64,000 nucleotides of DNA, from positions 37,662 through 101,661 of the IMG/VR virus record IMGVR_UViG_3300007609_001079, one strand, 5' to 3'. This DNA is from a virus. Shown here piece by piece: positions 2,554-62,491 of this stretch. Numbering within the stretch: position 1 is the first letter of the stretch; each line of letters begins with the position of its first letter. Under the pieces are notes generated by a model, which saw only the letters and a program-made list of their open reading frames with translations, had not been told where the DNA came from and did not search any database. The translations under genes were made by a program, and so were the position numbers.

Positions 2554-5500
2554 TATTTATCCTTTTTTAAATTTTTGTTTTCTTCTTCTAATTCAATTAA
2601 TCTATTATTTAGATTTTTTACAGCTTCTAATAGATATACAGTTAACTTTTCATACTTAACGCCCATATATCCACCATACATATCACCAACTAATTCTGGC
2701 ATATTTTCTTTAATTTCTTGCGCAATTACACCAACATCATGTCCTTTGGAATTATGTATTTTTTCATATTCAGGTCTCCAATCAAACTCATAACCACCAA
2801 TTTTATTTATTTTATCAAATGGATTATTAATAGGAATTATATTATCCTTCAATCTTTTATCCGATGAATAGTATGCGGTTATATTTCCAGTAGCAGTTAT
2901 ATTTCCACCCACCTCAACCATTGTACCCGATGCTTGTCTATCCATTCTAACATATTCAGTAGTAGTTCTTACAACCTGCAATCCTCCACCATTTATTTCA
3001 GTTACCGAAACTTCTTTAAATACTCTAACATTTGAGTATCCGGCTCCACGTCCTTCGATAGTTAAATCGGCAAAATATCCATTTGGAAGAAATATACTTG
3101 AATATATTGGAATATTATATGTAACTAATACTTTACTTCTTACAGTATATGTACCACCATTAGCATTAAATGTAGTTGCTTGTGGTCCACGGGAACTTGG
3201 TATGGTTACAAAATTTCTAGTAGTAACTTCTGATTGAGTTGAACCAACTAAATCGAGAGCAACCCCATTAAAAACAGATTGTACATGTTGAGCAGCAACA
3301 TTACCACCACTATCTATTAGTTGTAAATAAATTGTACATGAAATTTGAGCATTTCCTACTGTCATGTAATATGAACTTGGGTTTTGACCCGGTATTTCAA
3401 GAACTATATTAGCAGATAATGATGCATCGTTACTTGGATATGAATTATCTTGGTTATCAATAGAATCATATGCAAATGTTAAAGTTTGACCAGATAATCC
3501 AGATGTACTTATTGTGCCCGCATCATATGAATCTTCTAAGGTTCCGGTAAACGTAGTTTGATTACTAAATTGAGAAAATCTAGTATCCCCATCATAAACG
3601 GTTCCTTCCGGTACGTTTACCGAACCAGCAGTTGTCGCACCTAATGCAGATAAATTTGCCGATGAGTTTAAATCTACACGAATTGTAGTACCATCTTGGA
3701 TTTCAATCGCAGGTCTAGCTGCATTTAAAACAATTTGATTCGGTTTATAAATTTTGTCAGATGTGATTATCCAACCACCGATATTACCTAATGTAGATGT
3801 GATTTCACCAGAAAAAGTTCCTTCGGCCCCAACAAACGTAGTACCATTAATCACACCACCGGTAATATTTGCACCGGTAATATTTGCACCGGCTGATATA
3901 TTTCCTGCAAAGAACGCATCACCACTACTATCTATTCTAAACGAAGGTGTAGTTATAGTTCCGCCAGTTAAATCAAAATTAGTACCATTTGTTGAAAAAT
4001 TACTACCATCAGTTACACCACTATAACTATTTGATTGAATATTTCCTGTCCTAATTTTATTACCTTGAATGGTTGTGGTATTACTATTTACATCTCCAGC
4101 CGCATCACCTGGTCCTAACAAATTTCCAGCTGTCGTACCCCCAATGGTAACTGTATCTGATATTGTACCGGTAGTTGCGCTAATATTTCCCTTTATCTCT
4201 AATGTAGTTCCTGTCCATTTAAGGTAGTTAGTGTTTCCATTTTCAAGAGACATTTTATATTCCCCATCACCATCCCTACCAATGAATATACCATCCCCAA
4301 CCGAATATCCTTGATTTCCTTGTGTATTCGATTGACCTAATGAGAAGTAAGGAAAATTATCTCCACCATATAAGGTTATATTTGCTGAAGAAAGTGCACC
4401 ACTATTATTCGAACCAATATTCAAAGTGTTTCTAACAAACGATTCATCAAATATTGCTATCTTTGCAGCTACAAAGAAATCTTCAGTACCTAAATCTTGC
4501 CAGAAAGTATTTCCACCTGAAGTAGGAACTTGGTTTGTATTAGATTGTAATGTAGCGTAATATCTTCCATCATATAAAACAGCATCTCTTCTTCCATTAG
4601 ATATATCATATTGGTATGTACGTGATGAATTCCATGGACCTGTAAACACAATACCTGGACCGGTTGAACCCTCTGCTATAACTCGTATTGAGTGCGTCTT
4701 TTCAATAGCATCTGATTCATTTCCATCTCTATCTTTATATGTAACATCAAATGTAATTAGGTTACCAAGTACACTAGCCGGCTTTGCAGCAGTTATTGTA
4801 CCATCTGAATTTGATGAGGTACCATCTCCATTTGAATCTGTTAAGTTTGTAATTTTAAAAGTTCCATTTGTAGATAGTGTTGCATCATATGTGTATAATC
4901 CAAGAGAATCATATACTTGAACAGAAAATGTATTAGTATCTGATATGATATCATTAACATCTACACTAACTTCTTGAGATGGTGGGTTTAATTCTATTGT
5001 AACCGCACCCAATCCATCCACACCTTGTTTAGCAACACCAATGGTAAATGAAATATCTTCACTATCAGAAGTTCCTTCTGAGTTTACATAATTTATTGTA
5101 GCAGTACCACTAACCGTTGTAGATGGTGAAGTATCTGCGGTTATTACACCTAATGATGAAACACTAAATTCAGAAGATAGAGATTCTATTGTGAATTGAT
5201 ATTCACTTGGAGCTCCACTATTTAGGTATGTATAATTTGTAGTACCTTCTTTTACTGAAATATTAATCTCACTTGGTGTTGACCCAAAATCTATTGTTTG
5301 TGATTGTGGTGATACTGTAACCAATACATTAGGTGCAGCTTTTTTAACTTTAGATAATGCGATTGTATCTGTAATTGTTCGAGGAGTTCCTTCAGAATCT
5401 TCTACTGTGGCAGATATTGCAACAGTTGTTGAATCTATATTATCACCTAAAGTTCTACCACTTAATGTGATTGTACCACTTAATTCATCAGTAACAATAC

Positions 5501-8372
5501 TTGAAATATCAGATGAAATTGCATCTAAATTTGTAATTGTTTTATTAGATGAACTTCCTTCATATTGTTCTTTAACAACAACAATTGAATTACTAAAAGA
5601 ACCTGTTTGTTCGCCTGTTGATTTAGCAACTACACTTTGGTCTTTATTACTTGTTTCAATTGAAAGAAGTGGTGCAGCTATTTTTGATTTAGAATAATTT
5701 ACCTTTTTGGTAAAATCTATTTCAGTTGCATTATCACCAGCTTTATATCTTATTAAAAGTGTTAAATCTCCACTATCTCCACTCATCGCAGAAATACCAT
5801 ATGAGTTGGAATCTGGGTTAGGGTCATTTGGAGTTACACCTGATGATGGGGTTACTGAAACTATATCAAAGGTATTTTTAGTTCCCAATCCTTCACTATG
5901 TGAAATAACATTCGAACCAATTCTAACATCAACTGTACCATCACCATTATCAAATTCAGTAGAAGTTACATTACCAATTGAATCGGATTTGAATGAGGTA
6001 TTTTCTGTTGAAAGAACCACCGAGACCCCATCAAAGTTTATTACTTTTGAAATGGTAATTTCATCAGATTGTTCTACTCCAAAAACATCCGAGCCAGTAA
6101 ATTCATATGTAATTTCATCAAAGTTATTTTCTGCAAATGATGCAGAAAATTGTAACGCAGATAAGGTATATGTAGTTACACCACTTTCAGTAGAAACCTC
6201 AACTAAATCAGGTCCATTTACATTACTTTTATTAATAGTAATTGGAGTATCAATTGATGCTAAGTTTTTCCTTTGTGCACGAATTGTGATACTCTGTCCA
6301 CTTGGTTTTGGTGAAAGTGTTGTTGGTTCGTAAATAAATTGATTTGCGTTTGAACTAACTAAAAGAGTGGGTGCATTTTCACCATCTTCCAAACGATATA
6401 TTGTTTCAAATTCTTCAAGTTCCTCAATCGATGCAGTATAGATTATAGAGAATACTTCTGGTTTAGGGTCTACACCACCCCACGTTCCTTCAAATGAACC
6501 AATAGTAACCAACCCACCATTATTACTTGGATTGGTTAAACCACCAGGATATGATACCCAATCCGTTGGTTCGATGTAAACACCATCTTCATCAAATGCA
6601 CTCGAGAAATATGCAACTGAACCTGTTAAATTTTGGATAGTAGTTTTAAATTGTATTTGTTGTGATGTAGGACTTGCCGAACCACTTATATATCTAAATG
6701 CATTTCTATCCGATTCAAAGGTTAATAATTTTGAAGTTGTATTAAAATCGTTACCACCATTGAAAGTTTTGGTTGCAACTACATTGACTGGAATGTAATT
6801 ATTATTTATATCGTAAAACTCGAATCGGAAATCAAATGTTTCACTTGCAAGTTTTCTTGGTATATCTTGGATTAAGGTAAATTCATCAGGTGAGAATGAT
6901 GTATCTTGTGCATTCTTTAAAGATACATTTGAGATATACCAATCATCTCCTTTGAATTCAAATACCAATTTAGCATCAACATTTTGTTGTGCTATAATAT
7001 TTTCACTAATAGATTTACGAACCACATAGGAACCATCCGGAGTAACATCTACAAACGATTGAGTAAATGGACTACCATTATCATATGCTCCACTAAAATA
7101 AGCTTTAAGATATTTATCATCTGATATGGACCCACTTAATAAAGTTCTAAAGTTTAAAGTGTATTCAACATCTTTAGAAATAGAAAAAGATTGTGAAGTG
7201 ATTAACTGTTGAATACCACTACCATTATAATCTATTTTAACTGCTTGAGATAAAACAGAAGAATCTATTTCAGTTGGGTGGTCTATACTTGTGGTAACCC
7301 AATATCTTTCTAAATTAGTTTGGTCAAATCTACCATAAGATAATTCAGTATTTTCGGTAGTGGTTATATCACGAAGTAATTCCGTTGATTCTAATCTTGA
7401 TTCTTGTACAAATTGAAAATCATTTGCAGAACTTCTTGATTTACGAAATACCTTAACCCTTGCAACATCACCAACAAAAGTTTTTAATTGAGTAATATCT
7501 ATTTTAGCAAATGAACCAGTAAGCGCAGATTCTCCAATAGTTTCACGTTGGAAATCGGTATAAGTAACTGAATATGATTGTGATGTAAAATTATCAACTA
7601 TATTATTATCGTTGGTATATGGTATATTTACTAAAAGTTCTCTATCATTAAGAACCTCAATTATATTCGAGGAATATGTAGAACCATCAACATTTACATC
7701 GATTGTATTTTCATCAACATCAATATCCCATGTACCCGAACTTTTAATTAATTTATAGAAAGTACCCCCACGATAGTTTGTTAAATCGGTTCCTGCGTTT
7801 GGTAGTTGAGCAACACCACTAACTTCACCCGTATCAGTAACTTGATTAACACTTTTAGTAAAAATAGGTTTTACAAGTTCATCTATGGATACTAATGGTC
7901 TTTTGTAAAACCTAACAATAGTTTCGTTGGCAAGGTTTTTATTTATCTTAAATGTCCTCTCCCACTTAACATTGTAGATACCCCTCCATTCTTCTGGCAC
8001 GGGTAGTGTTTCACCATTAGGACCTATATAATTTTTTAACTCACCAAGAATGGTGATTTTACCTAAGCCTATTGGAGTATCATCATAAACATGAACTGAT
8101 ACTAATTTTGAAGTTCCCTCATAGTATTCGGGTATACCATCACCTGGTTCAAAATATACAGGATTTCCTTCAACATCTAATACTTCAATTTTTACCTCAG
8201 TAGTTTCTTTTAAAAACTCAGAACCTTCAATTAAAAACCCATTTTTACCACCAGTATATTGTTCAGTAAATTCAGAAATCCTAAAGTAATCTGAATTAGG
8301 ATTTTCATCTACCAAAAAAGTTTGGAAATTGGAAAGGTTTTGAAAGGGTGAAAAAGATTTTATTATTGCCAT
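2553..8372 (-). CDS. Long tail fibre protein with C-terminal intramolecular chaperone (peptidase S74)
   Basis: C-terminal SDKRLKDNI...GYEFDW...GVIAQEI plus coiled coil. Start adjusted to MAIIKSF (8372), which has a GGAGA RBS and a late promoter. Confidence 0.85.
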   Translation of the reverse strand: MAIIKSFSPFQNLSNFQTFLVDENPNSDYFRISEFTEQYTGGKNGFLIEGSEFLKETTEVKIEVLDVEGNPVYFEPGDGIPEYYEGTSKLVSVHVYDDTPIGLGKITILGELKNYIGPNGETLPVPEEWRGIYNVKWERTFKINKNLANETIVRFYKRPLVSIDELVKPIFTKSVNQVTDTGEVSGVAQLPNAGTDLTNYRGGTFYKLIKSSGTWDIDVDENTIDVNVDGSTYSSNIIEVLNDRELLVNIPYTNDNNIVDNFTSQSYSVTYTDFQRETIGESALTGSFAKIDITQLKTFVGDVARVKVFRKSRSSANDFQFVQESRLESTELLRDITTTENTELSYGRFDQTNLERYWVTTSIDHPTEIDSSVLSQAVKIDYNGSGIQQLITSQSFSISKDVEYTLNFRTLLSGSISDDKYLKAYFSGAYDNGSPFTQSFVDVTPDGSYVVRKSISENIIAQQNVDAKLVFEFKGDDWYISNVSLKNAQDTSFSPDEFTLIQDIPRKLASETFDFRFEFYDINNNYIPVNVVATKTFNGGNDFNTTSKLLTFESDRNAFRYISGSASPTSQQIQFKTTIQNLTGSVAYFSSAFDEDGVYIEPTDWVSYPGGLTNPSNNGGLVTIGSFEGTWGGVDPKPEVFSIIYTASIEELEEFETIYRLEDGENAPTLLVSSNANQFIYEPTTLSPKPSGQSITIRAQRKNLASIDTPITINKSNVNGPDLVEVSTESGVTTYTLSALQFSASFAENNFDEITYEFTGSDVFGVEQSDEITISKVINFDGVSVVLSTENTSFKSDSIGNVTSTEFDNGDGTVDVRIGSNVISHSEGLGTKNTFDIVSVTPSSGVTPNDPNPDSNSYGISAMSGDSGDLTLLIRYKAGDNATEIDFTKKVNYSKSKIAAPLLSIETSNKDQSVVAKSTGEQTGSFSNSIVVVKEQYEGSSSNKTITNLDAISSDISSIVTDELSGTITLSGRTLGDNIDSTTVAISATVEDSEGTPRTITDTIALSKVKKAAPNVLVTVSPQSQTIDFGSTPSEINISVKEGTTNYTYLNSGAPSEYQFTIESLSSEFSVSSLGVITADTSPSTTVSGTATINYVNSEGTSDSEDISFTIGVAKQGVDGLGAVTIELNPPSQEVSVDVNDIISDTNTFSVQVYDSLGLYTYDATLSTNGTFKITNLTDSNGDGTSSNSDGTITAAKPASVLGNLITFDVTYKDRDGNESDAIEKTHSIRVIAEGSTGPGIVFTGPWNSSRTYQYDISNGRRDAVLYDGRYYATLQSNTNQVPTSGGNTFWQDLGTEDFFVAAKIAIFDESFVRNTLNIGSNNSGALSSANITLYGGDNFPYFSLGQSNTQGNQGYSVGDGIFIGRDGDGEYKMSLENGNTNYLKWTGTTLEIKGNISATTGTISDTVTIGGTTAGNLLGPGDAAGDVNSNTTTIQGNKIRTGNIQSNSYSGVTDGSNFSTNGTNFDLTGGTITTPSFRIDSSGDAFFAGNISAGANITGANITGGVINGTTFVGAEGTFSGEITSTLGNIGGWIITSDKIYKPNQIVLNAARPAIEIQDGTTIRVDLNSSANLSALGATTAGSVNVPEGTVYDGDTRFSQFSNQTTFTGTLEDSYDAGTISTSGLSGQTLTFAYDSIDNQDNSYPSNDASLSANIVLEIPGQNPSSYYMTVGNAQISCTIYLQLIDSGGNVAAQHVQSVFNGVALDLVGSTQSEVTTRNFVTIPSSRGPQATTFNANGGTYTVRSKVLVTYNIPIYSSIFLPNGYFADLTIEGRGAGYSNVRVFKEVSVTEINGGGLQVVRTTTEYVRMDRQASGTMVEVGGNITATGNITAYYSSDKRLKDNIIPINNPFDKINKIGGYEFDWRPEYEKIHNSKGHDVGVIAQEIKENMPELVGDMYGGYMGVKYEKLTVYLLEAVKNLNNRLIELEEENKNLKKDK

Positions 8373-37580: not shown

Positions 37581-37844
37581 TTATAATGATTCGTTTAAAT
37601 CTTCTACTACTTTTTTAAGTTGTGAAAAGGTTTCACCAACCTCATCATCTTTTTCGAAAGCTTGTCTTGTATCAATTTCTTGCATTTTCTCAAGAGCAGT
37701 TAATACTTTAGATTGGGTATCTTTAATAGTCCCAACTAATCTATCCTCAAGTTGTTCGTTCTGTCTTAATAGATTCCGAACCCCTATAAGGAATACTAAA
37801 TTAACTACACCTGATGCAATCAATCCAATTAAAATGTAATCCAT
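37581..37844 (-). CDS. Single-pass membrane protein with coiled coil
   Basis: N-terminal hydrophobic helix YILIGLIASGVVNLVFLIGV. Confidence 0.6.
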   Translation of the reverse strand: MDYILIGLIASGVVNLVFLIGVRNLLRQNEQLEDRLVGTIKDTQSKVLTALEKMQEIDTRQAFEKDDEVGETFSQLKKVVEDLNESL

Positions 37845-52735: not shown

Positions 52736-53989
52736 TTAATTTTTTTTAATAAATTTATCATTTTCAAACCACCATATATCTGTAACTTGTTCGACTTCAG
52801 AATCTCTAAAATTTGATGTATGTAACTCAACGATACCATCTCCATTAAAATCACCCAGATATAACCATTGTATCCATTGCATGTTATGATTTTCATAATC
52901 AAAATTTTCTTCCATATACAAATCAGTAACATCCGTAAACGATGTATTATCATTTCTAAAAATTTCTATTCTCCCATTAAAATATGTATTATTTGTGCTA
53001 CCAATTATATCCAAATCACCATCACCATCAATATCAAAAAATACCATATCAATTAATAAATCTCCTTGGGTTTTTATAAATGTTTTTTCTTTGGTTGTTA
53101 GGTTGTAAACAAAAGAACCTGTACCATCGAGATTATCACTTGGGTGTTTAATCTGATGACCACCCAATATTAATTCAATAGTACCATCATTGTTTAAATC
53201 AATAGATTCTGAAGTGAATTTATTATATGCGTCTAATATATCTATATCAAATTCAGTTATTACTAATCCATTGTTCCAACGTCCACCCGTATCTCCCTCA
53301 AATTCTATTATCCTTGAAATATTTCCCCAAGGTCCTTTGGGATTAATTAAAATAACTTCAGGCTTTCCATCATTATCAATATCAGATGATGTAACTGAGT
53401 GCCAATATCCATCAGCTACTCCATAATTGTTATCTAATCTAAATTCTTTAAATCCCCCATTAGTATCATTAATTAATATAATAGGATATTCATTTGGAAT
53501 ATAGTTTGGTTGATTTGAATCGGGACCCGTTCCGGCAAAGAATACATCCAAGAAACCATCACCATTATAATCTCCAATAATACTCTTTCTTGCATGGATT
53601 AATCCTATAAATTTATTAGTATTGTTGGAATCTTCAATTAAGTTACCATCACCATCACCCAAGTAGAATTTGATATATCTTCTAACTCGATTACCTTGAA
53701 TTGAATTACCAACATCAGTATTATTATAAATAAAATCCAAATGACCATCGTTATTATAATCAAAAATAGCCATATCCTCTGGATAAAAATCATCCCATAC
53801 AAACTCATTAAACAAATATGGTAATCGGTTGTTTACCGAATTTGAATTAAAATAACTATTATCAATACCCTGATATGAATATTCGGTTATATTATCAATA
53901 ACCAATGGTTCATATATGGTATCAATTATTTCATCTTTACTACAACTAACTAAAGTTAAAACAAACAATAATAAAAATTTAATTTTCAT
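52736..53989 (-). CDS. Lipoprotein with FG-GAP/VCBS repeats
   Basis: LVS-C-SKDE lipobox; repeated DxNxDGxxD motifs (DYNNDGHLD, DYNGDGFLD, DIDNDGKPE, DLNNDGTIE, DIDGDGDLD). Confidence 0.8.
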   Translation of the reverse strand: MKIKFLLLFVLTLVSCSKDEIIDTIYEPLVIDNITEYSYQGIDNSYFNSNSVNNRLPYLFNEFVWDDFYPEDMAIFDYNNDGHLDFIYNNTDVGNSIQGNRVRRYIKFYLGDGDGNLIEDSNNTNKFIGLIHARKSIIGDYNGDGFLDVFFAGTGPDSNQPNYIPNEYPIILINDTNGGFKEFRLDNNYGVADGYWHSVTSSDIDNDGKPEVILINPKGPWGNISRIIEFEGDTGGRWNNGLVITEFDIDILDAYNKFTSESIDLNNDGTIELILGGHQIKHPSDNLDGTGSFVYNLTTKEKTFIKTQGDLLIDMVFFDIDGDGDLDIIGSTNNTYFNGRIEIFRNDNTSFTDVTDLYMEENFDYENHNMQWIQWLYLGDFNGDGIVELHTSNFRDSEVEQVTDIWWFENDKFIKKN

Positions 53990-54207: not shown

Positions 54208-54417
54208 TTATATATAATCGTATCGTGAAGCCTCTAACTCATATTGTTCATGCTCCATATCAGTATCCCAATCAAAATCATCACTACTATCTACTACAAT
54301 ATCAGTTTCATTAGGAAGTAAATCTAACATATCATCCAACTCAACATCGGTAATCATTCCGTTGGCATATCCAACAACTAACTCGTTTACTCTTTCTTTA
54401 TAATTCATATCTCTCAT
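54208..54417 (-). CDS. Small acidic hypothetical protein
   Basis: Start adjusted to MRDMNY, directly after a promoter; very D/E-rich. Confidence 0.6.
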   Translation of the reverse strand: MRDMNYKERVNELVVGYANGMITDVELDDMLDLLPNETDIVVDSSDDFDWDTDMEHEQYELEASRYDYI

Positions 54418-54457
54418 TTTTATTACATAGTAAATGTACAACAATTATTCAGGTTTA

Positions 54458-54487
54458 CCAAATCCTAAATGTTAAAATTTTGTTAAA
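54458..54487. repeat. Direct repeat copy 1 flanking the ArgRS cassette (upstream part of a promoter)
   Basis: ccaaatcctaaatgttaaaattttgttaaa, 29/30 identical to 55801..55830. Confidence 0.85.
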
Positions 54488-55661
54488 GTTTATTAACAGA
54501 AAACATTCCCAAATTATTCATACCGAATTCAAGGTCTGATAATAAGTTTGAAAATAATTCTGTGTTTTCTTGGTTTCCTTTAATATACAATTCCTCTTTT
54601 AGTTTCATAATTTGTTTAGCGTGATTATGAAGTTCTCCAAATAAAATACTTGGGTCTAAATTCTCAATTGATTTTATATGTGCAGATTGTAATTTCTGTG
54701 ATTGGTAATTTATAATATCAGTTATACCAACATCACAACTCTTTATACTTACCAACGTATAACTTAGATATAACCCAAGTGATTGTTTTACATTTGATAT
54801 TAAATCTAAGTTGATTGATTTTATTTGATTGGGTTTTGATTTTAGAATTTGACCTGCGATAATATTGTAAACTAACTTTATATCGTTATTAAATTTCGGT
54901 AAAAGTTGATTGATAAAATCTTCCAAGAATAAAACATTACCTTTGGATGAGGACATCTTCTCACCATCTAACATTACCAATCCTAATCCCAAATGATTGG
55001 TGTTTGGAAATAATTGGTTAAGAGAATTGAAATGATTATCTTGTTCAAACCCAGTCAAGTAAAGTGTTGATTTGTTTAATTTTTGTGCCAAGGCAACATC
55101 TTGATAGAAATAAGAAGTTGAATTATCTGATTTTATTCCTACTATCTTTTCATTACCTATCTCAAATATTTTAGTATCAGAGTAATCACCATTACCACTT
55201 GTAAGTAATGAATCATCATCGAGTTCCATTTCAGATGCGAAATAAATATCTGATATTTCATAACCAAAGTTTTTACAATACTCTTTATACTTTTGTAATG
55301 CAAGTTCCTTACTAACTTCACCACTCAAAGTATCACCAAGAATGGAAATAAAGTTTTTGCCAACTCCCAACTTTTGGAATGAGTTTGCCAATACTAAATT
55401 GGAAAAATGTCCAATATGAAGTTCTTTATTCAAGTTAGGAGAAAACCCATCTACATACTCATATGGAGTTGGTGTTTCAAAACACTCAAATAAATTTTGA
55501 TTGGTTGGTATTATAATATTTGTAAACGGACCAGATTGTTGAGTTTTAAAGTTCCAATAAGTTACCCAGTCTTTTACTTCGTTTGTTAATTCACCATACT
55601 GACAGAATCCGAATTCTAAATGTGATGGTGTTTGTTTTATTTTGTTTATATTAAGTTTCAT
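54483..55661 (-). CDS. argS: Compact arginyl-tRNA synthetase-like protein
   Basis: SPNLNKELHIGH (ArgRS-type SPNxxKxLHIGH), IKSDNSTSYFYQD (cf. KSDGxxxYxxxD), EQDNHF, KMSSSKG, LYLSY, anticodon-domain-like C-terminus. Confidence 0.75.
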   Translation of the reverse strand: MKLNINKIKQTPSHLEFGFCQYGELTNEVKDWVTYWNFKTQQSGPFTNIIIPTNQNLFECFETPTPYEYVDGFSPNLNKELHIGHFSNLVLANSFQKLGVGKNFISILGDTLSGEVSKELALQKYKEYCKNFGYEISDIYFASEMELDDDSLLTSGNGDYSDTKIFEIGNEKIVGIKSDNSTSYFYQDVALAQKLNKSTLYLTGFEQDNHFNSLNQLFPNTNHLGLGLVMLDGEKMSSSKGNVLFLEDFINQLLPKFNNDIKLVYNIIAGQILKSKPNQIKSINLDLISNVKQSLGLYLSYTLVSIKSCDVGITDIINYQSQKLQSAHIKSIENLDPSILFGELHNHAKQIMKLKEELYIKGNQENTELFSNLLSDLEFGMNNLGMFSVNKL

Positions 55662-55709
55662 AATAATAAGTTTTGTAAATTAAATAATAATAGTGTAGTC
55701 AATGTAATA

Positions 55710-55754
55710 TTATCTAATCCGCCTTATCTTATTATATGTCTTAATTGTTTTCAT
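55710..55754 (-). CDS. Putative Arg-rich leader peptide MKTIKTYNKIRRIR
   Basis: ATG...ATA AGG CGG ATT AGA TAA, lying between the promoter and the argS start. Confidence 0.6.
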   Translation of the reverse strand: MKTIKTYNKIRRIR

Positions 55755-55771
55755 CTTTCTTAATCTTACTC

Positions 55772-55830
55772 TGTAAATATACGAAATAAGTTTTGGTTTT
55801 CCAAATCCTAAATGTTAAAGTTTTGTTAAA
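55772..55830 (-). promoter_or_regulatory. Sigma-A-type promoter with TTAACA direct repeats; includes repeat copy 2 (55801..55830)
   Basis: Minus strand TTTAACAAAACTTTAACATTTAGGATTTGGAAAACCAAAACTTATTTCGTATATTTAC. Confidence 0.7.
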
Positions 55831-55836
55831 ATTAAA

Positions 55837-55871
55837 ATTCCCCCATCACTTATTTAAAAATGTGGGGGAAC
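55837..55871 (-). terminator. Probable terminator hairpin
   Basis: TTCCCCCA ... TGGGGGAA inverted repeat followed by TTTT on the minus strand. Confidence 0.65.
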
Positions 55872-55914
55872 TTTCACCTCTAAGGTAGCTGCCATAAAGG
55901 AACTCTTAATTAGA

Positions 55915-56634
55915 TTATAATAATGTTTTAACTTCCATTGGCATATTTTTCATTTTAAGATATCCACAATAATGAGTATAATATGTATTACCTGTTTCAA
56001 AACTAACTCCATTGCTAAAGTATTTAACGGAATAATCTTTAGATAATAAAGTTAATAAATATTGAGTATGTGCTGCAGTAGTAAACGTTGGATTTAAATT
56101 ATGAGAGTGTTTGTTTAATACATTATATAAGTATTTCCAATCATCAATATATCGGTTTTTTAATTCTAAATTTGGAATTCGTAATATTCCTACGTTATAT
56201 ACACCTCGTTTAGAATTTAACCAATATGATAAATTAATATCTATATTATTTTTTATATACTCAATGGTTTTAGAATATGCCCAATCCCAATTTAAAGTTT
56301 CAATTCCATCAAAAAATAAATCACTACTATCAAACTCAATTCGGTTTTTATAAATCACATCATTATCTGATAGGAAATAATCATCATTGGGTTCATTTTC
56401 TAAAACATATAATTTAAAACTATCCCATGAGTTATCATAATCATCATCTATATATCGTACATCAATATCAAACTTATTTCCGAATTCAATATCATTAGTA
56501 TATAGTGTCGGAATATATCCCAATCCATCTATACTTTTTAAAGAACCCATTAACCATTTTTCTTGATTAGTGGGTTCTTTATATATTTCGAACTTAGGTT
56601 TTTTGTAAGTATATATTATACGATTTACATCCAT
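55915..56634 (-). CDS. GT-A-like (DxD) accessory protein
   Basis: FKLY...YFLSDNDVI, YNVGIL, YTHYCG, typical of nucleotide-diphospho-sugar transferase folds. Confidence 0.5.
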   Translation of the reverse strand: MDVNRIIYTYKKPKFEIYKEPTNQEKWLMGSLKSIDGLGYIPTLYTNDIEFGNKFDIDVRYIDDDYDNSWDSFKLYVLENEPNDDYFLSDNDVIYKNRIEFDSSDLFFDGIETLNWDWAYSKTIEYIKNNIDINLSYWLNSKRGVYNVGILRIPNLELKNRYIDDWKYLYNVLNKHSHNLNPTFTTAAHTQYLLTLLSKDYSVKYFSNGVSFETGNTYYTHYCGYLKMKNMPMEVKTLL

Positions 56635-57296
56635 TACTGATATGCATAAAGTAATTTTAGTAACTCATCTAACGCCTCATGTCTGTGGTTATCTTTTAAG
56701 TTAATTGAGTAGACAAACTTAGATGGAGTTACCTTTGGTACATCGTGTACTGCAGAATCATTTGAAAACTTTAAATCAATTTGTTGTGGGTCTCCTGTTA
56801 GAATCATAGTTGAGCCTTTACCCAATCTACCTAACACCATTCCAAGTTGCGGTTTAGTTAGATTTTGAAACTCATCCACAATAACTACTGCATTATCAAA
56901 GGTTCTTCCTCTAAAGTGAGCGAGGGATACTAACTCAATGTTTTCTTCTTTTTCCATTTTCTCTAAGATAATTGGTTTGTTATAAACCTTCCTCATGTTA
57001 GAACGAATTGGAACTAACCATGGTTCCATTTTCTCATCCAATGAACCAGGTAGATATCCATTATCCTCATTAGATACAGTTGGCCTTGTTATAATTATTT
57101 TGTTAACCTGTCGTGTAAAGTACATATCCAATGCCACTTGAACTGCGAGAAGGGTTTTACCACTACCGGCCTTTCCCATTATAAAATTGTAGGGATGATA
57201 TAAAATGTTTGTCTTTGCCTCCTTCTGTTCTTCTGATAACGTAATGTTGAATTTAATTTTCCCACGCGGTGGATTTTTTTCAATGTTTTCTGGCAT
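56634..57296 (-). CDS. phoH: PhoH-like ATPase
   Basis: GKAGSGKT, ITRP, GYLPG, RGRTF, DEFQN, GDPQQID. Confidence 0.93.
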   Translation of the reverse strand: MPENIEKNPPRGKIKFNITLSEEQKEAKTNILYHPYNFIMGKAGSGKTLLAVQVALDMYFTRQVNKIIITRPTVSNEDNGYLPGSLDEKMEPWLVPIRSNMRKVYNKPIILEKMEKEENIELVSLAHFRGRTFDNAVVIVDEFQNLTKPQLGMVLGRLGKGSTMILTGDPQQIDLKFSNDSAVHDVPKVTPSKFVYSINLKDNHRHEALDELLKLLYAYQ

Positions 57297-57321
57297 AATT
57301 AATATAGTTAAGTTAATAAAT

Positions 57322-57813
57322 TTATAGAATGGATTTTGTATTGGTAGTATCCATTCTATACCAAATTACTAAAACATTTCGGTTACCCGAAATGAGTTCC
57401 GTAACTTCATGATAAGTCTTTCCTCCATTATAAAGTAAATACTCACCCTCTTCTTTAAATTCTATTTTCTTTTTATTAAATAAAAAATCACCTCCTTCTG
57501 AATTATTTTCTAACATAATAACACATGTTAAATCAGAATCATCAACATGCTCTCTAACCTTAGAACCTTTAGTATATTCTATTTTATGAATGGATGTTAA
57601 ATACGTAGAATCCCAATTGGTTATTTCAGATATAAAATTATTTAATGGAGTGTGGTTTAATGTATATTTTATAGTATCCATATTATATGCACGGTTACTG
57701 TAATATATTCCAGGAGCTCTAAGTTTAAGTAGTTTTAATTCTGAATTACCCATTAGAGGTGTTGAACCTAATATGGATTTTAATTCTAATAATTTTTCTT
57801 TAGTTATTTTCAT
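57322..57813 (-). CDS. 2OG-Fe(II) oxygenase
   Basis: EHVDDS (HxD), EGGDF, YHEV...GNRNVLVIW. Confidence 0.8.
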   Translation of the reverse strand: MKITKEKLLELKSILGSTPLMGNSELKLLKLRAPGIYYSNRAYNMDTIKYTLNHTPLNNFISEITNWDSTYLTSIHKIEYTKGSKVREHVDDSDLTCVIMLENNSEGGDFLFNKKKIEFKEEGEYLLYNGGKTYHEVTELISGNRNVLVIWYRMDTTNTKSIL

Positions 57814-58333
57814 TTAAAAAATTATATTGAGTGAATCCACATTTATAGCAAAGTTGAGCTGATGCCCTATTCCAACTATCAGAATATAAATAAATTGTAT
57901 GATACTTTAAATCAGTTAACCACGTATAAAATGAATAATTATAAAATTTAAATCCAGCAATTGGTGGAGTCTTTGATTTTCTTGATAAAAATGCACCACC
58001 CACGTAAAGTTCATTTGGATTTAGTTGTTGATAGAGATTTATCCAATCAATAGTTATATTAGAATTAAACCAAGTCCATCCTACAACCACATCATCATAT
58101 AACCATAAAAAACATTCTGATTTATTTTGAAATCTTTTTATAATCTCATCTTTATTAGGGATACCATCCCATTCAAGGTCTATATGAAGTAGTTCCACAA
58201 CATATAATAATTCACTTAAATATTCATCATAGTTAGCTTCCGTTAGATGAATCAATTTATATGAATCATTTATACTTATTTTTTTAAATTCAGATTTTAA
58301 TAATCTAAATTGTACTATGTTATTTATATCCAT
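57800..58333 (-). CDS. GNAT-family acetyltransferase-like protein
   Basis: VVGWTW, LYSDSWNRASAQLCYKCGF (motif B NxxA..LYxKxGF-like). Confidence 0.65.
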   Translation of the reverse strand: MDINNIVQFRLLKSEFKKISINDSYKLIHLTEANYDEYLSELLYVVELLHIDLEWDGIPNKDEIIKRFQNKSECFLWLYDDVVVGWTWFNSNITIDWINLYQQLNPNELYVGGAFLSRKSKTPPIAGFKFYNYSFYTWLTDLKYHTIYLYSDSWNRASAQLCYKCGFTQYNFLNENN

Positions 58334-58357
58334 AAAACATGTTTATAGGTATAAATA

Positions 58358-58741
58358 TTATATTATGGTTTTTTGAATATTAGAAGTATCTTTATTAGAT
58401 TTTAACTGAGAGGTTTTATTTATTAAATCATTCTTTATTTCAACAATACCCGAACATCGTTCATAGTATTCTCTTTTTTCAAACCACTTTAATGATAACT
58501 CCAACACATCCATATAATCTTTTTTTTCTATTAAGATTGCTGCTGGTGCGTTCTCGTGGATAACCATCACCAATGATTCTCTGTTCTTTCTATTTGCTCG
58601 TTGGATGTTTTGAGATATTTGCCATAAGACATCATCACCACGGGATTCTAAGAATCTTTTTACTTGTGGATTACCATTATTGATATCCAAATATTTTTTC
58701 CAATTAACTGTACTTAAAGCTTTTCCCATTCTGTACTCCAA
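58358..58741 (-). CDS. Hypothetical protein with a UVR-like coiled-coil motif
   Basis: FEKREYYERCSGIVEIKNDL resembles the UvrB/C ExYExAAxxRD motif. Confidence 0.5.
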   Translation of the reverse strand: MEYRMGKALSTVNWKKYLDINNGNPQVKRFLESRGDDVLWQISQNIQRANRKNRESLVMVIHENAPAAILIEKKDYMDVLELSLKWFEKREYYERCSGIVEIKNDLINKTSQLKSNKDTSNIQKTII

Positions 58742-58748
58742 TTGTTTT

Positions 58749-59510
58749 TTAAAAATTAGTACCTATATTATAGTAATCTACAAAATCAATTCCCCTACCT
58801 CGTGTGAAAGGATTTGATATATCGTAACGTATGGGAATCTTAACTTCCGTTTTAACCGAACCACCCTCTGGTGTATTTGTTGTTAATTGAGTTGTAAGAA
58901 CTTTACCAATTGAATCATCTTGTACCAATTGGGTAGCTGTGGTTTCATTTTCTGCAACATATTCTATACCACTTTGTACTGCATCTGAATACTCTAACCC
59001 TACACCCATATCCGATTCTACATCATAGGTACTTGTATTCAAATTCCAAGTACCATACTCACCAATATTACGTAAAGTTTGAGTTTCACTTACCAACCAA
59101 TCAATGTGTTTAATTATATCTTCGGTTGTTTTTAAATTTTTGGTAATATTAACTTCCGCATACTTTTCACGAGTAGTAAATTTTTCCGCGTTTAATAACT
59201 CATCCTTTGAAAACTGAATACGTGTTACATTTGATTTTTGAATATATGGGTTACCCGATTTTAAACTATTTTCTAAAAAGGATTTGAATTGGGGTGAGGT
59301 ATATTCTTGACCATCCAATTCTAAGATAAAATTAAATGAAGTACCACTAACCACAGAAACCCCACGTAAATCTTCTATTGTGAAGTTTAGGGAGTTTTCA
59401 TTATAACGACCCTGGTAATCAATTGAGTTACCATTACTTTGATAACTTAACTCAACATTACGTTCGTCTGGATACTGATTTCTTAGTTGATTAATCCTTT
59501 TATAATCCAT
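58749..59510 (-). CDS. Hypothetical protein
   Basis: Late motif immediately upstream of the ATG. Confidence 0.6.
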   Translation of the reverse strand: MDYKRINQLRNQYPDERNVELSYQSNGNSIDYQGRYNENSLNFTIEDLRGVSVVSGTSFNFILELDGQEYTSPQFKSFLENSLKSGNPYIQKSNVTRIQFSKDELLNAEKFTTREKYAEVNITKNLKTTEDIIKHIDWLVSETQTLRNIGEYGTWNLNTSTYDVESDMGVGLEYSDAVQSGIEYVAENETTATQLVQDDSIGKVLTTQLTTNTPEGGSVKTEVKIPIRYDISNPFTRGRGIDFVDYYNIGTNF

Positions 59511-62387: not shown

Positions 62388-62491
62388 ATAATGAGTAAAG
62401 ATATCTAATAACACTAAGTGGGTGGTTTTATTCCCATCTTCAACCTTTACTTGTATATAAATATATACCTTACAAAGATACGAAAATTAAT

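Follow-up and report, generated by a model that had tools for sequence, protein, structure and literature searches.

A short upstream reading frame ending in arginine codons as a candidate translational attenuator of a compact arginyl-tRNA synthetase-like gene in a phage

The leader peptides trpL, hisL, leuL, thrL and ilvL are classical and multivalent attenuators of amino-acid operons; in leaders of the erm/cat type a Shine-Dalgarno site is masked, and the ribosome pauses only when a drug and a specific nascent peptide act together; and T-box elements control aminoacyl-tRNA synthetase (aaRS) genes by direct binding of tRNA, for which translation is not needed. Large phages carry synthetases and tRNAs. 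In a 64,000-nucleotide (nt) stretch of phage DNA (hereafter the window; positions 37,662 to 101,661 of IMG/VR record IMGVR_UViG_3300007609_001079), an upstream open reading frame (uORF) of 14 codons with arginine codons at its end lies ahead of argS, a gene for a compact arginyl-tRNA synthetase (ArgRS)-like protein (P0001). In Escherichia coli, the phenylalanyl-tRNA synthetase genes pheST are attenuated by the leader pheM, according to the part of PMC4082710 that cites Fayat 1983, Springer 1985 and Mechulam 1987. A literature search found no description of leader-peptide control for a phage synthetase, ArgRS or tRNA genes; word searches found neither 'attenuat' nor 'leader' in the text of Al-Shayeb 2020 (PMC7162821), and no description of such control in Biol Direct 2016 11:20 (PMC4833913). 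We propose that the uORF is a leader peptide that senses charged tRNA-Arg and sets the output of ArgRS by translational attenuation at hungry codons, an account to which we give somewhat better than an even chance. That the leader senses the decoding of arginine is quite probable; that the controlled step in the window is the initiation of translation has even prospects, or slightly better.

All coordinates are positions in the window unless a locus is named, and leader, promoter and argS all lie on the minus strand. The leader ORF occupies 55710..55754 (14 codons and TAA, with the same peptide in five relatives); its ATG is at 55754-55752 and its TAA at 55712-55710, as read from the reverse-complement translation of 55754-55707. 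Codons 11-14, AGG-CGG-ATT-AGA (55713..55724), make up the putative sensor block, delimited from the sequence and from codon usage, with AGG at 55724, CGG at 55721 and AGA at 55715, three Arg codons that represent both codon boxes. Translation confirms the 14-codon frame with this ending that a first-pass annotation of the same DNA had described, and the 48 nt that it had counted between the uORF stop and the argS ATG (55661) are exact (55709-55662). Its remark that the codons are GC-rich and unexpected is borne out for AGG and CGG: in the 101,661-bp record (GC 30.8%), 3.6% of codons specify Arg, and of the Arg codons 57.5% are AGA, 8.5% AGG and 1.0% CGG (11 CGG in about 31,500 codons), so that two of the three sensor codons are rare. 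A short promoter-proximal ORF with codons cognate to the downstream gene, here 14 codons with three Arg, is the arrangement of the trpL/pheM type. By its Arg composition alone the uORF is only mildly unusual and not remarkable, since at least three Arg are present in 15 of the 676 short ORFs (10-20 codons) in the six frames of the record; among these 676 the uORF alone has three Arg within its last five residues. It is the position after a promoter box, together with conservation, that raises the uORF above chance.

The DNA upstream of argS was compared at 42 viral and 80 metagenomic loci with a homologue of P0001. The window and the loci L046, L048, L049, L050 and L053 constitute class A, six sequences in five distinct rows; the closest homologues of P0001 (P0002-P0005, 95-96% identical, and P0006-P0033, 71-83%) are not among these DNA rows. 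The 14-residue peptide is identical, and at the same distance from argS (-93 to -48), at all five of the other loci, whose ArgRS proteins are 81-82% (L046, L048, L053) or 71% (L049, L050) identical to P0001. Three columns of the uORF vary, all of them in Arg codons 12 and 14 and all synonymously (CGG/CGA/AGG; AGA/AGG), which gives zero nonsynonymous against three synonymous changes and leaves the relatives with the sensor blocks AGG-CGA-ATT-AGG, AGG-CGG-ATT-AGG and AGG-AGG-ATT-AGG. Identity from -101 to +34 is 88-100%, and that of 45-nt windows deeper in the coding region is 51-97%, mostly 55-85%; judged from this comparison, the leader is the best-conserved part of the locus. L049 and L050 retain the leader even though their upstream gene, and all sequence beyond -101, is different. 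Conserved Arg-codon uORFs in front of homologous compact ArgRS genes, the check that the first-pass annotation had suggested, were found, as the same peptide at five loci and as unrelated Arg-rich leaders elsewhere. A degenerate DNA pattern for the leader peptide had no match in the viral contigs.

The RNA from the presumed start of transcription to argS +20 folds into one long hairpin, with a minimum free energy (MFE) of -17.3 kcal/mol and a z-score of -4.45; none of 200 shuffled sequences is as stable. In the predicted fold, which MFE and RNAalifold calculations share, the outer helix pairs uORF codons 4-9 (5' arm 55728..55745, also in the centroid fold; columns 52-69 of alignment A4) with the initiation region of argS, which spans -9 to +12 and includes the AUG at 55661-55659 (3' arm 55650..55670), and the inner helix pairs Arg codons 12-14, the stop codon and two further nucleotides (5' arm 55708..55722) with part of the 48-nt spacer (3' arm 55675..55689), all on the minus strand. 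RNAalifold gives the same consensus structure for the six class-A sequences. Eight positions vary between the start codons of the uORF and argS, and each is either unpaired or wobble-compatible with its partner; in the inner helix, the A/G and G/A changes (columns 84 and 78) leave a G-U or A-U pair. The ribosome footprint was modelled as reaching 12 nt upstream of the P site and 9 nt downstream of the A site. In free RNA the argS AUG is unpaired with a probability of 0.02; this value rises to 0.58-0.59 when AGG or CGG occupies the A site and to 0.48 when AGA does, and is 0.03 for a ribosome at the stop codon. As in the erm/cat type, the predicted hairpin joins the leader ORF to the downstream initiation region, and in the model a ribosome at the pause site opens it and a terminating ribosome does not.

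Terminator scans of 54300-56000, and of the last 95 nt before argS in every class-A sequence, found no terminator-like site, consistent with the lack of a classical GC terminator in the first-pass annotation; the window has neither the intrinsic terminator nor the mutually exclusive antiterminator of the trpL/pheM type. Rfam has no family around the leader, even at E up to 10, and a T-box (RF00230) or another known leader family was rejected for want of such a match. A covariance model of terminator-type leaders (R1, described below) has no match in the window at E up to 1, and a hidden attenuator of that type was rejected accordingly. Since no terminator follows the leader, control in the window would be translational or Rho-dependent, as the annotation had also suggested; both the terminator-less spacer and the predicted hairpin over the argS start agree with this.

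From the anatomy of the locus, its conservation and the cognate pattern across relatives, all of which are observed, we infer translation of the uORF, stalling within it, and the direction and level of control. Transcription would start a few bases past the TATATTTA box, and the first ribosome would translate the 14-codon leader. In free RNA, or with a ribosome at the stop codon, codons 4-9 would pair with the argS initiation region and bury its AUG, and the Arg codons and the stop codon would pair with the spacer. When Arg-tRNA is short, the ribosome would wait on AGG, CGG or AGA with its footprint over the 5' arms of both helices, leaving the A/U-rich argS start free for initiation. The extra ArgRS would restore charging and close the loop, a negative feedback of the pheST type that, because this clade is without a terminator, would act on translation with the geometry of the erm/cat type. 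The expectation of the earlier annotation that argS rises as charged tRNA-Arg falls gains support from comparative evidence, namely the synonymous-only changes in Arg codons, Arg leaders at other loci, Asn leaders on asnS and the hairpin at the argS start; a host defence against tRNA-Arg or ArgRS, which it had named as one possible trigger, gained none.

Relatives with 56-66% ArgRS identity possess unrelated short leaders with 2-6 Arg each, in motifs such as N-R-N-R, N-R-R, R-R-R, R-R-F-R-H-R, R-R-R-R-F-L-R-R and R-R-R-N-L-R-R. Nine distinct argS leaders of these clades have an intrinsic terminator (L034:2363-2465, L035:2337-2447, L051:80-189, L052:433-540, L058:2304-2417, L060:2365-2473, L066:2370-2478, L067:2368-2480 and L096:1159-1266): an invariant CTGA overlaps or follows the leader stop, and next comes a G+C hairpin with a U run, the 5' arm of which contains an invariant CAGA. 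Folding places the Arg codons in the 5' arm of the leader hairpin; with the leader masked to mimic a ribosome on its Arg codons, a GUCUGA:UCAGAC antiterminator of -7 to -13 kcal/mol forms, and when the mask reaches the stop codon none does. In a 13-sequence alignment (A5), the antiterminator (columns 56-62:99-105) is 91% paired versus at most 34% for slid partners, and its closing pair covaries (GC, AU, CG); the terminator has 14 double-change cells, a value reached by none of 500 shuffles. By their predicted structures, these leaders are of the textbook trp/pheM design. What leaders at the argS position in the sister clades have in common is limited to the Arg (and Asn) positions. The Arg leaders are enriched in AGG (a hand count gives about 8 of 23 codons, versus 8.5% of the Arg codons of the record), and at L001 (LR745206) a tRNA-Arg(CCU), the reader of AGG, is encoded at 5567-5640, directly upstream of a leader with the Arg codons AGA and AGG.

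Leaders matched to other amino acids precede other translation genes. The class II gene beside argS at several loci is asnS (TIGR00457, 394.5 versus a cut-off of 342.6). On the single 4.2-kb contig of L058, a five-Arg leader precedes argS (2304-2417) and a six-Asn leader precedes asnS (3872-3983); at L057, asnS-argS follows an Arg-free leader that has six Asn in a row; and leaders with N-N-R-N-R (L001, LR745206) and N-N-R-S-R (L066) precede asnS-argS and argS-asnS, respectively. The covariance model R1, which represents the leader hairpin and terminator and was built on structure and sequence from 13 training elements (these and their copies score 54-105 bits), was searched against five whole giant-phage records, relatives of 0.5-0.68 Mb, in which its weak matches (E 0.02-0.5) proved to be additional terminator-bearing leaders. 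One, in which 7 of 16 residues are Gln, is followed by three tRNA-Gln genes and glnS (TIGR00440, 511.8 versus 425.8); valS-like genes lie behind two leaders with runs of Val; tRNA-Ser and tRNA-Arg genes alternate behind two Ser/Arg leaders, in one case with serS after them; tRNA-Ile, tRNA-Gly and a GlyRS-like gene stand behind an Ile/Gly leader; tRNA-Leu, tRNA-Asp and tRNA-Asn stand behind a Leu/Asn/Asp leader; and at L002 an Ile/Arg/Met leader precedes tRNA-Arg, tRNA-Ile, tRNA-Met and argS. When nine leader-operon pairs were shuffled, cognate content averaged 1.34, and none of 20,000 shuffles reached the observed 3.5. The composition of the leaders corresponds to the specificity of the aaRS or tRNA genes behind them, a pattern to which the window conforms with Arg codons ahead of an ArgRS gene, and the start M-K-T-I/L is common to many of these leaders and to that of the window.

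Two genes near these leaders are unusual in themselves. Behind a Val-run leader, L132:144-1475 (LR745206, minus strand of the locus) encodes a ValRS-like protein of 443 amino acids (aa) that is probably without an editing domain, because the usual ValRS has about 860-880 aa. At L133:1230-1303 (LR745206), ARAGORN predicts a tRNA with a four-base anticodon (gtag) in an array of Asp and Pro tRNAs just upstream of the Gln leader.

The gene behind the window leader (54483..55661, minus strand) was assigned by motifs, profile and fold. P0001, a protein of 392 aa, has HIGH and KMSSS motifs and matches the argS profile TIGR00456 at E 1.5e-10 (40.1 bits, below the cut-off of 261.65) and PF00750 with 18.9 bits (below the cut-off of 23.3); in a search of PDB sequences, ArgRS chains match it at E 0.05. 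Its AlphaFold model, for which 37 homologues served as input, has a pLDDT of 92.7, and among the PDB matches listed by Foldseek the 18 best are all ArgRS (E 7e-16 to 4e-12, TM (query) 0.60-0.74), ahead of CysRS and MetRS. P0001 combines a Rossmann core of class I with motifs of the HIGH and KMSKS types, and its fold is closest to solved ArgRS structures. The N-terminal Add-1 and DALR anticodon-binding domains were not detected by Pfam, and a C-terminal helical bundle is present in the AlphaFold model; because the usual ArgRS has about 550-600 aa, P0001 must have reduced versions of Add-1 and DALR. On the strength of the model, P0001 is a compact ArgRS-like enzyme with putative charging activity, and the Arg-rich leaders of several clades lend indirect support to charging of tRNA-Arg by this family. 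The homologues of P0001 number 618, nearly all of about 392 aa and many on contigs of 0.1-0.64 Mb; the 'phages' collection contains two distant homologues only, and a single-protein scan of the viral contigs with P0001 had no match.

The record is a 101,661-bp IMG/VR phage contig, about half complete according to CheckV, with 92 predicted genes all on one strand. The promoter that the first-pass annotation had placed ahead of the uORF is present and is better described as a Bacteroidota-type TTTG / TAnnTTTG promoter, a layout typical of that phylum, than as a sigma-70 consensus promoter (a scan for the sigma-70 consensus was uninformative, with 13 sites versus 12 expected). The promoter's upstream half (55801..55830, minus strand) was read from the sequence, includes a TTTG (-33-like) element at 55805-55802 and agrees in 29 of 30 bases with a second copy; the TATATTTA box (55774..55781, minus strand), identified from box counts and spacing, is the -7/-10 element of the phage's promoters of this type. 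TATATTT[AG] occurs in 30 copies on the coding strand, about 18 of which are intergenic though intergenic DNA is 7% of the genome, and most of the intergenic copies lie 25-37 nt before a gene start. At the argS locus, the box follows TTTG by 20 nt, and its distance is 27 nt to the uORF ATG and 120 nt to argS; because a spacing of 27 nt from box to ATG is normal in this phage, the uORF occupies the site expected of a first cistron. A Shine-Dalgarno sequence precedes 18 of 91 genes and the DNA upstream of starts is 48% A, both of which are Bacteroidota-like. Two distant ArgRS homologues are found in GenBank phages with genomes of 634-636 kb, and genomes of >634 kb are predicted to replicate in Bacteroidetes in the relevant part of Al-Shayeb et al. 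(PMC7162821).

A G+C hairpin with a T-rich tail follows the upstream 239-aa gene (55828..55868, minus strand; read from the sequence and kept in L053 and L048). This hairpin fails the strict terminator scan and probably ends the transcript of the 239-aa gene, in which case leader and argS would be a separate unit. The second copy of the promoter's upstream half (29/30) lies at the 3' end of argS (54458-54487), where it serves the next gene (TACATTTA box, ATG near 54444), and since the two copies bracket leader and argS, the cassette may be movable. Neither asnS nor tRNA-Arg was found in the 101,661-bp record, which indicates that the leader gates argS alone. In the stretch upstream of the leader (55915-59510) are genes for PhoH (56634-57296) and a 2OG-Fe(II) oxygenase (57322-57813); the downstream neighbour encodes an FG-GAP repeat protein (52736-53989). 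A tRNA-Glu gene (62387-62315, minus strand) has promoter boxes and a 7-codon ORF (M-G-I-K-P-P-T) upstream of it at 62400-62470; this ORF was rejected as a cognate leader, having neither a Glu codon nor a terminator.

Several observations weigh against translational attenuation by the window leader. No pair in either helix has changed on both sides, and the structural support, which comes from five distinct rows of nearly identical leaders, may be called thin; the hairpin is a thermodynamic prediction for an A/U-rich RNA in a genome of 31% GC, and the extent of the footprint in the ribosome model is an assumption. The sensor codons, three Arg, are fewer than textbook attenuators carry, and the model R1 of terminator-type leaders does not match the window. 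Identity decays gradually into the first 120 nt of argS, and part of the conservation of the leader could come from riding on a recombining promoter cassette (the 29/30 repeat). Finally, L047 (82% ArgRS identity) has the same promoter box and no Arg leader, which implies that the leader is dispensable. This locus, apparently a naturally leader-less variant, has a 69-codon ORF in place of the leader (L047:2100-2400), and its argS may be extended by an in-frame ATG 71 nt upstream.

The leader might sense Arg and yet control transcription, if Rho loads on the C-rich, G-poor spacer after ribosome release at the stop codon and is blocked by a ribosome on the Arg codons or by rearranged RNA. About six C and one G are present in the spacer, which is without a terminator, and relatives outside the window clade would all act at transcription termination; however, a ribosome at codons 11-14 leaves most of the spacer exposed, and the conserved pairing of the argS AUG with uORF codons 4-9 is given no role, so we regard Rho-dependent control as unlikely. 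Slightly less likely again is an inherited leader that no longer senses Arg, in which translation melts the hairpin constitutively to give a fixed low level of ArgRS and the Arg codons are a relic of a terminator-type ancestor. Loss of the terminator in the window clade, the first residues M-K-T-I/L that are common to the terminator-type leaders of L067, L002, L132 and L140, and the ability of L047 to manage without a leader would all fit such a relic, but the Arg codons are the only ones in the uORF to have changed and every change stayed Arg, AGG and CGG are rare in the genome, and the Arg block lies exactly where a paused ribosome uncovers the AUG, whereas a ribosome at the stop codon does not.

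It is improbable that the uORF has no function, its conservation being due to a recombining promoter cassette or to a second argS promoter inside the spacer and its Arg codons to chance. The promoter half is indeed repeated at both ends of argS, 2% of the genome's short ORFs have at least three Arg, and the octamer that lies 21 nt ahead of the argS ATG shares 4 of its 8 positions with the promoter box; but L049 and L050 keep the leader with different DNA upstream of -101 and a different neighbour gene, the uORF has zero nonsynonymous versus three synonymous changes, and several unrelated Arg-rich leaders stand at the same position in other clades, as Asn leaders do on asnS. We give least credence to the view that the basic 14-residue peptide is itself the product, a micropeptide co-expressed with ArgRS. 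Its complete (100%) conservation in six sequences would suit that view, but sister-clade leaders have only the Arg (and Asn) positions in common, and synonymous sites outside the Arg codons are invariant too, which points to a constraint on the RNA. The arginine attenuator peptide of fungal arg-2/CPA1 acts by a conserved nascent chain and is not known to be Arg-rich, and a mechanism of that type was set aside for these reasons. Reinitiation at the leader stop as a plain booster of expression was also set aside, because the 48-nt spacing is far from the peak of 10-14 nt that is given in the relevant part of Biol Direct 2016 11:20 (PMC4833913).

If translational attenuation by the leader is correct, the phage measures the decoding of Arg codons in the infected cell and adds charging capacity only on need, and the terminator-less form extends amino-acid sensing by leader peptides from transcription to the initiation of translation. 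The leader would be a compact natural sensor of charged tRNA without a Shine-Dalgarno site. A cognate leader would also provide a direct functional hint for the compact, hard-to-annotate 392-aa ArgRS-like family, and leaders in general would offer a readout of specificity for unknown phage translation genes. A broader proposition, which we consider as apt to hold as to fail, is that giant phages of Bacteroidota exert genome-wide supply-on-demand control over translation parts by means of codon-matched test ORFs, and that this control includes the translational, terminator-less form in the window as hungry-codon attenuation of the erm type on a viral aaRS.

Among described systems, pheM resembles the window in that an aaRS gene lies behind a short ORF with cognate codons and that expression goes up as charged tRNA falls, and differs in being bacterial and in having an intrinsic terminator and antiterminator, whereas the window has a phage gene, no terminator and three sensor codons. 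A closer match to pheM than the window is provided by the terminator-type relatives (L051, L058, L060, L067 and others). Leaders of the trpL type likewise come directly behind the promoter and have their sensor codons shortly ahead of the stop, within a few codons, and the relatives share with them the mutually exclusive regions 1:2, 2:3 and 3:4 and the use of mixed codons for mixed operons (N-N-R-N-R before asnS-argS). In contrast, the trpL type gates biosynthetic enzymes, and the phage leaders, in a viral setting, gate aaRS genes and, in relatives, tRNA genes, in the window without a terminator. As in T-box control, expression of an aaRS would respond to the charging of its cognate tRNA; unlike a T-box, the window has no Rfam match. 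In erm, cat and cmlA, a hairpin joins nucleotides of the leader ORF to the initiation region of the next gene and is opened by a ribosome paused in the leader, a geometry that is predicted for the window as well. The window differs from erm/cat in that the proposed pause is on hungry Arg codons and in that the AUG and its A/U-rich surroundings are masked. The sister-clade leaders share only Arg/Asn positions, and hungry codons would be a simpler cause of the pause than a small molecule acting with a nascent peptide. The leaders of the phage's own relatives, examined at L001, L002, L058 and L128-L143, have the same promoter box, the M-K-T start, leader codons that match the downstream genes and the giant-phage setting in common with the window, which is distinguished from them by gating a synthetase alone, with no tRNA gene behind it and without a terminator or antiterminator.

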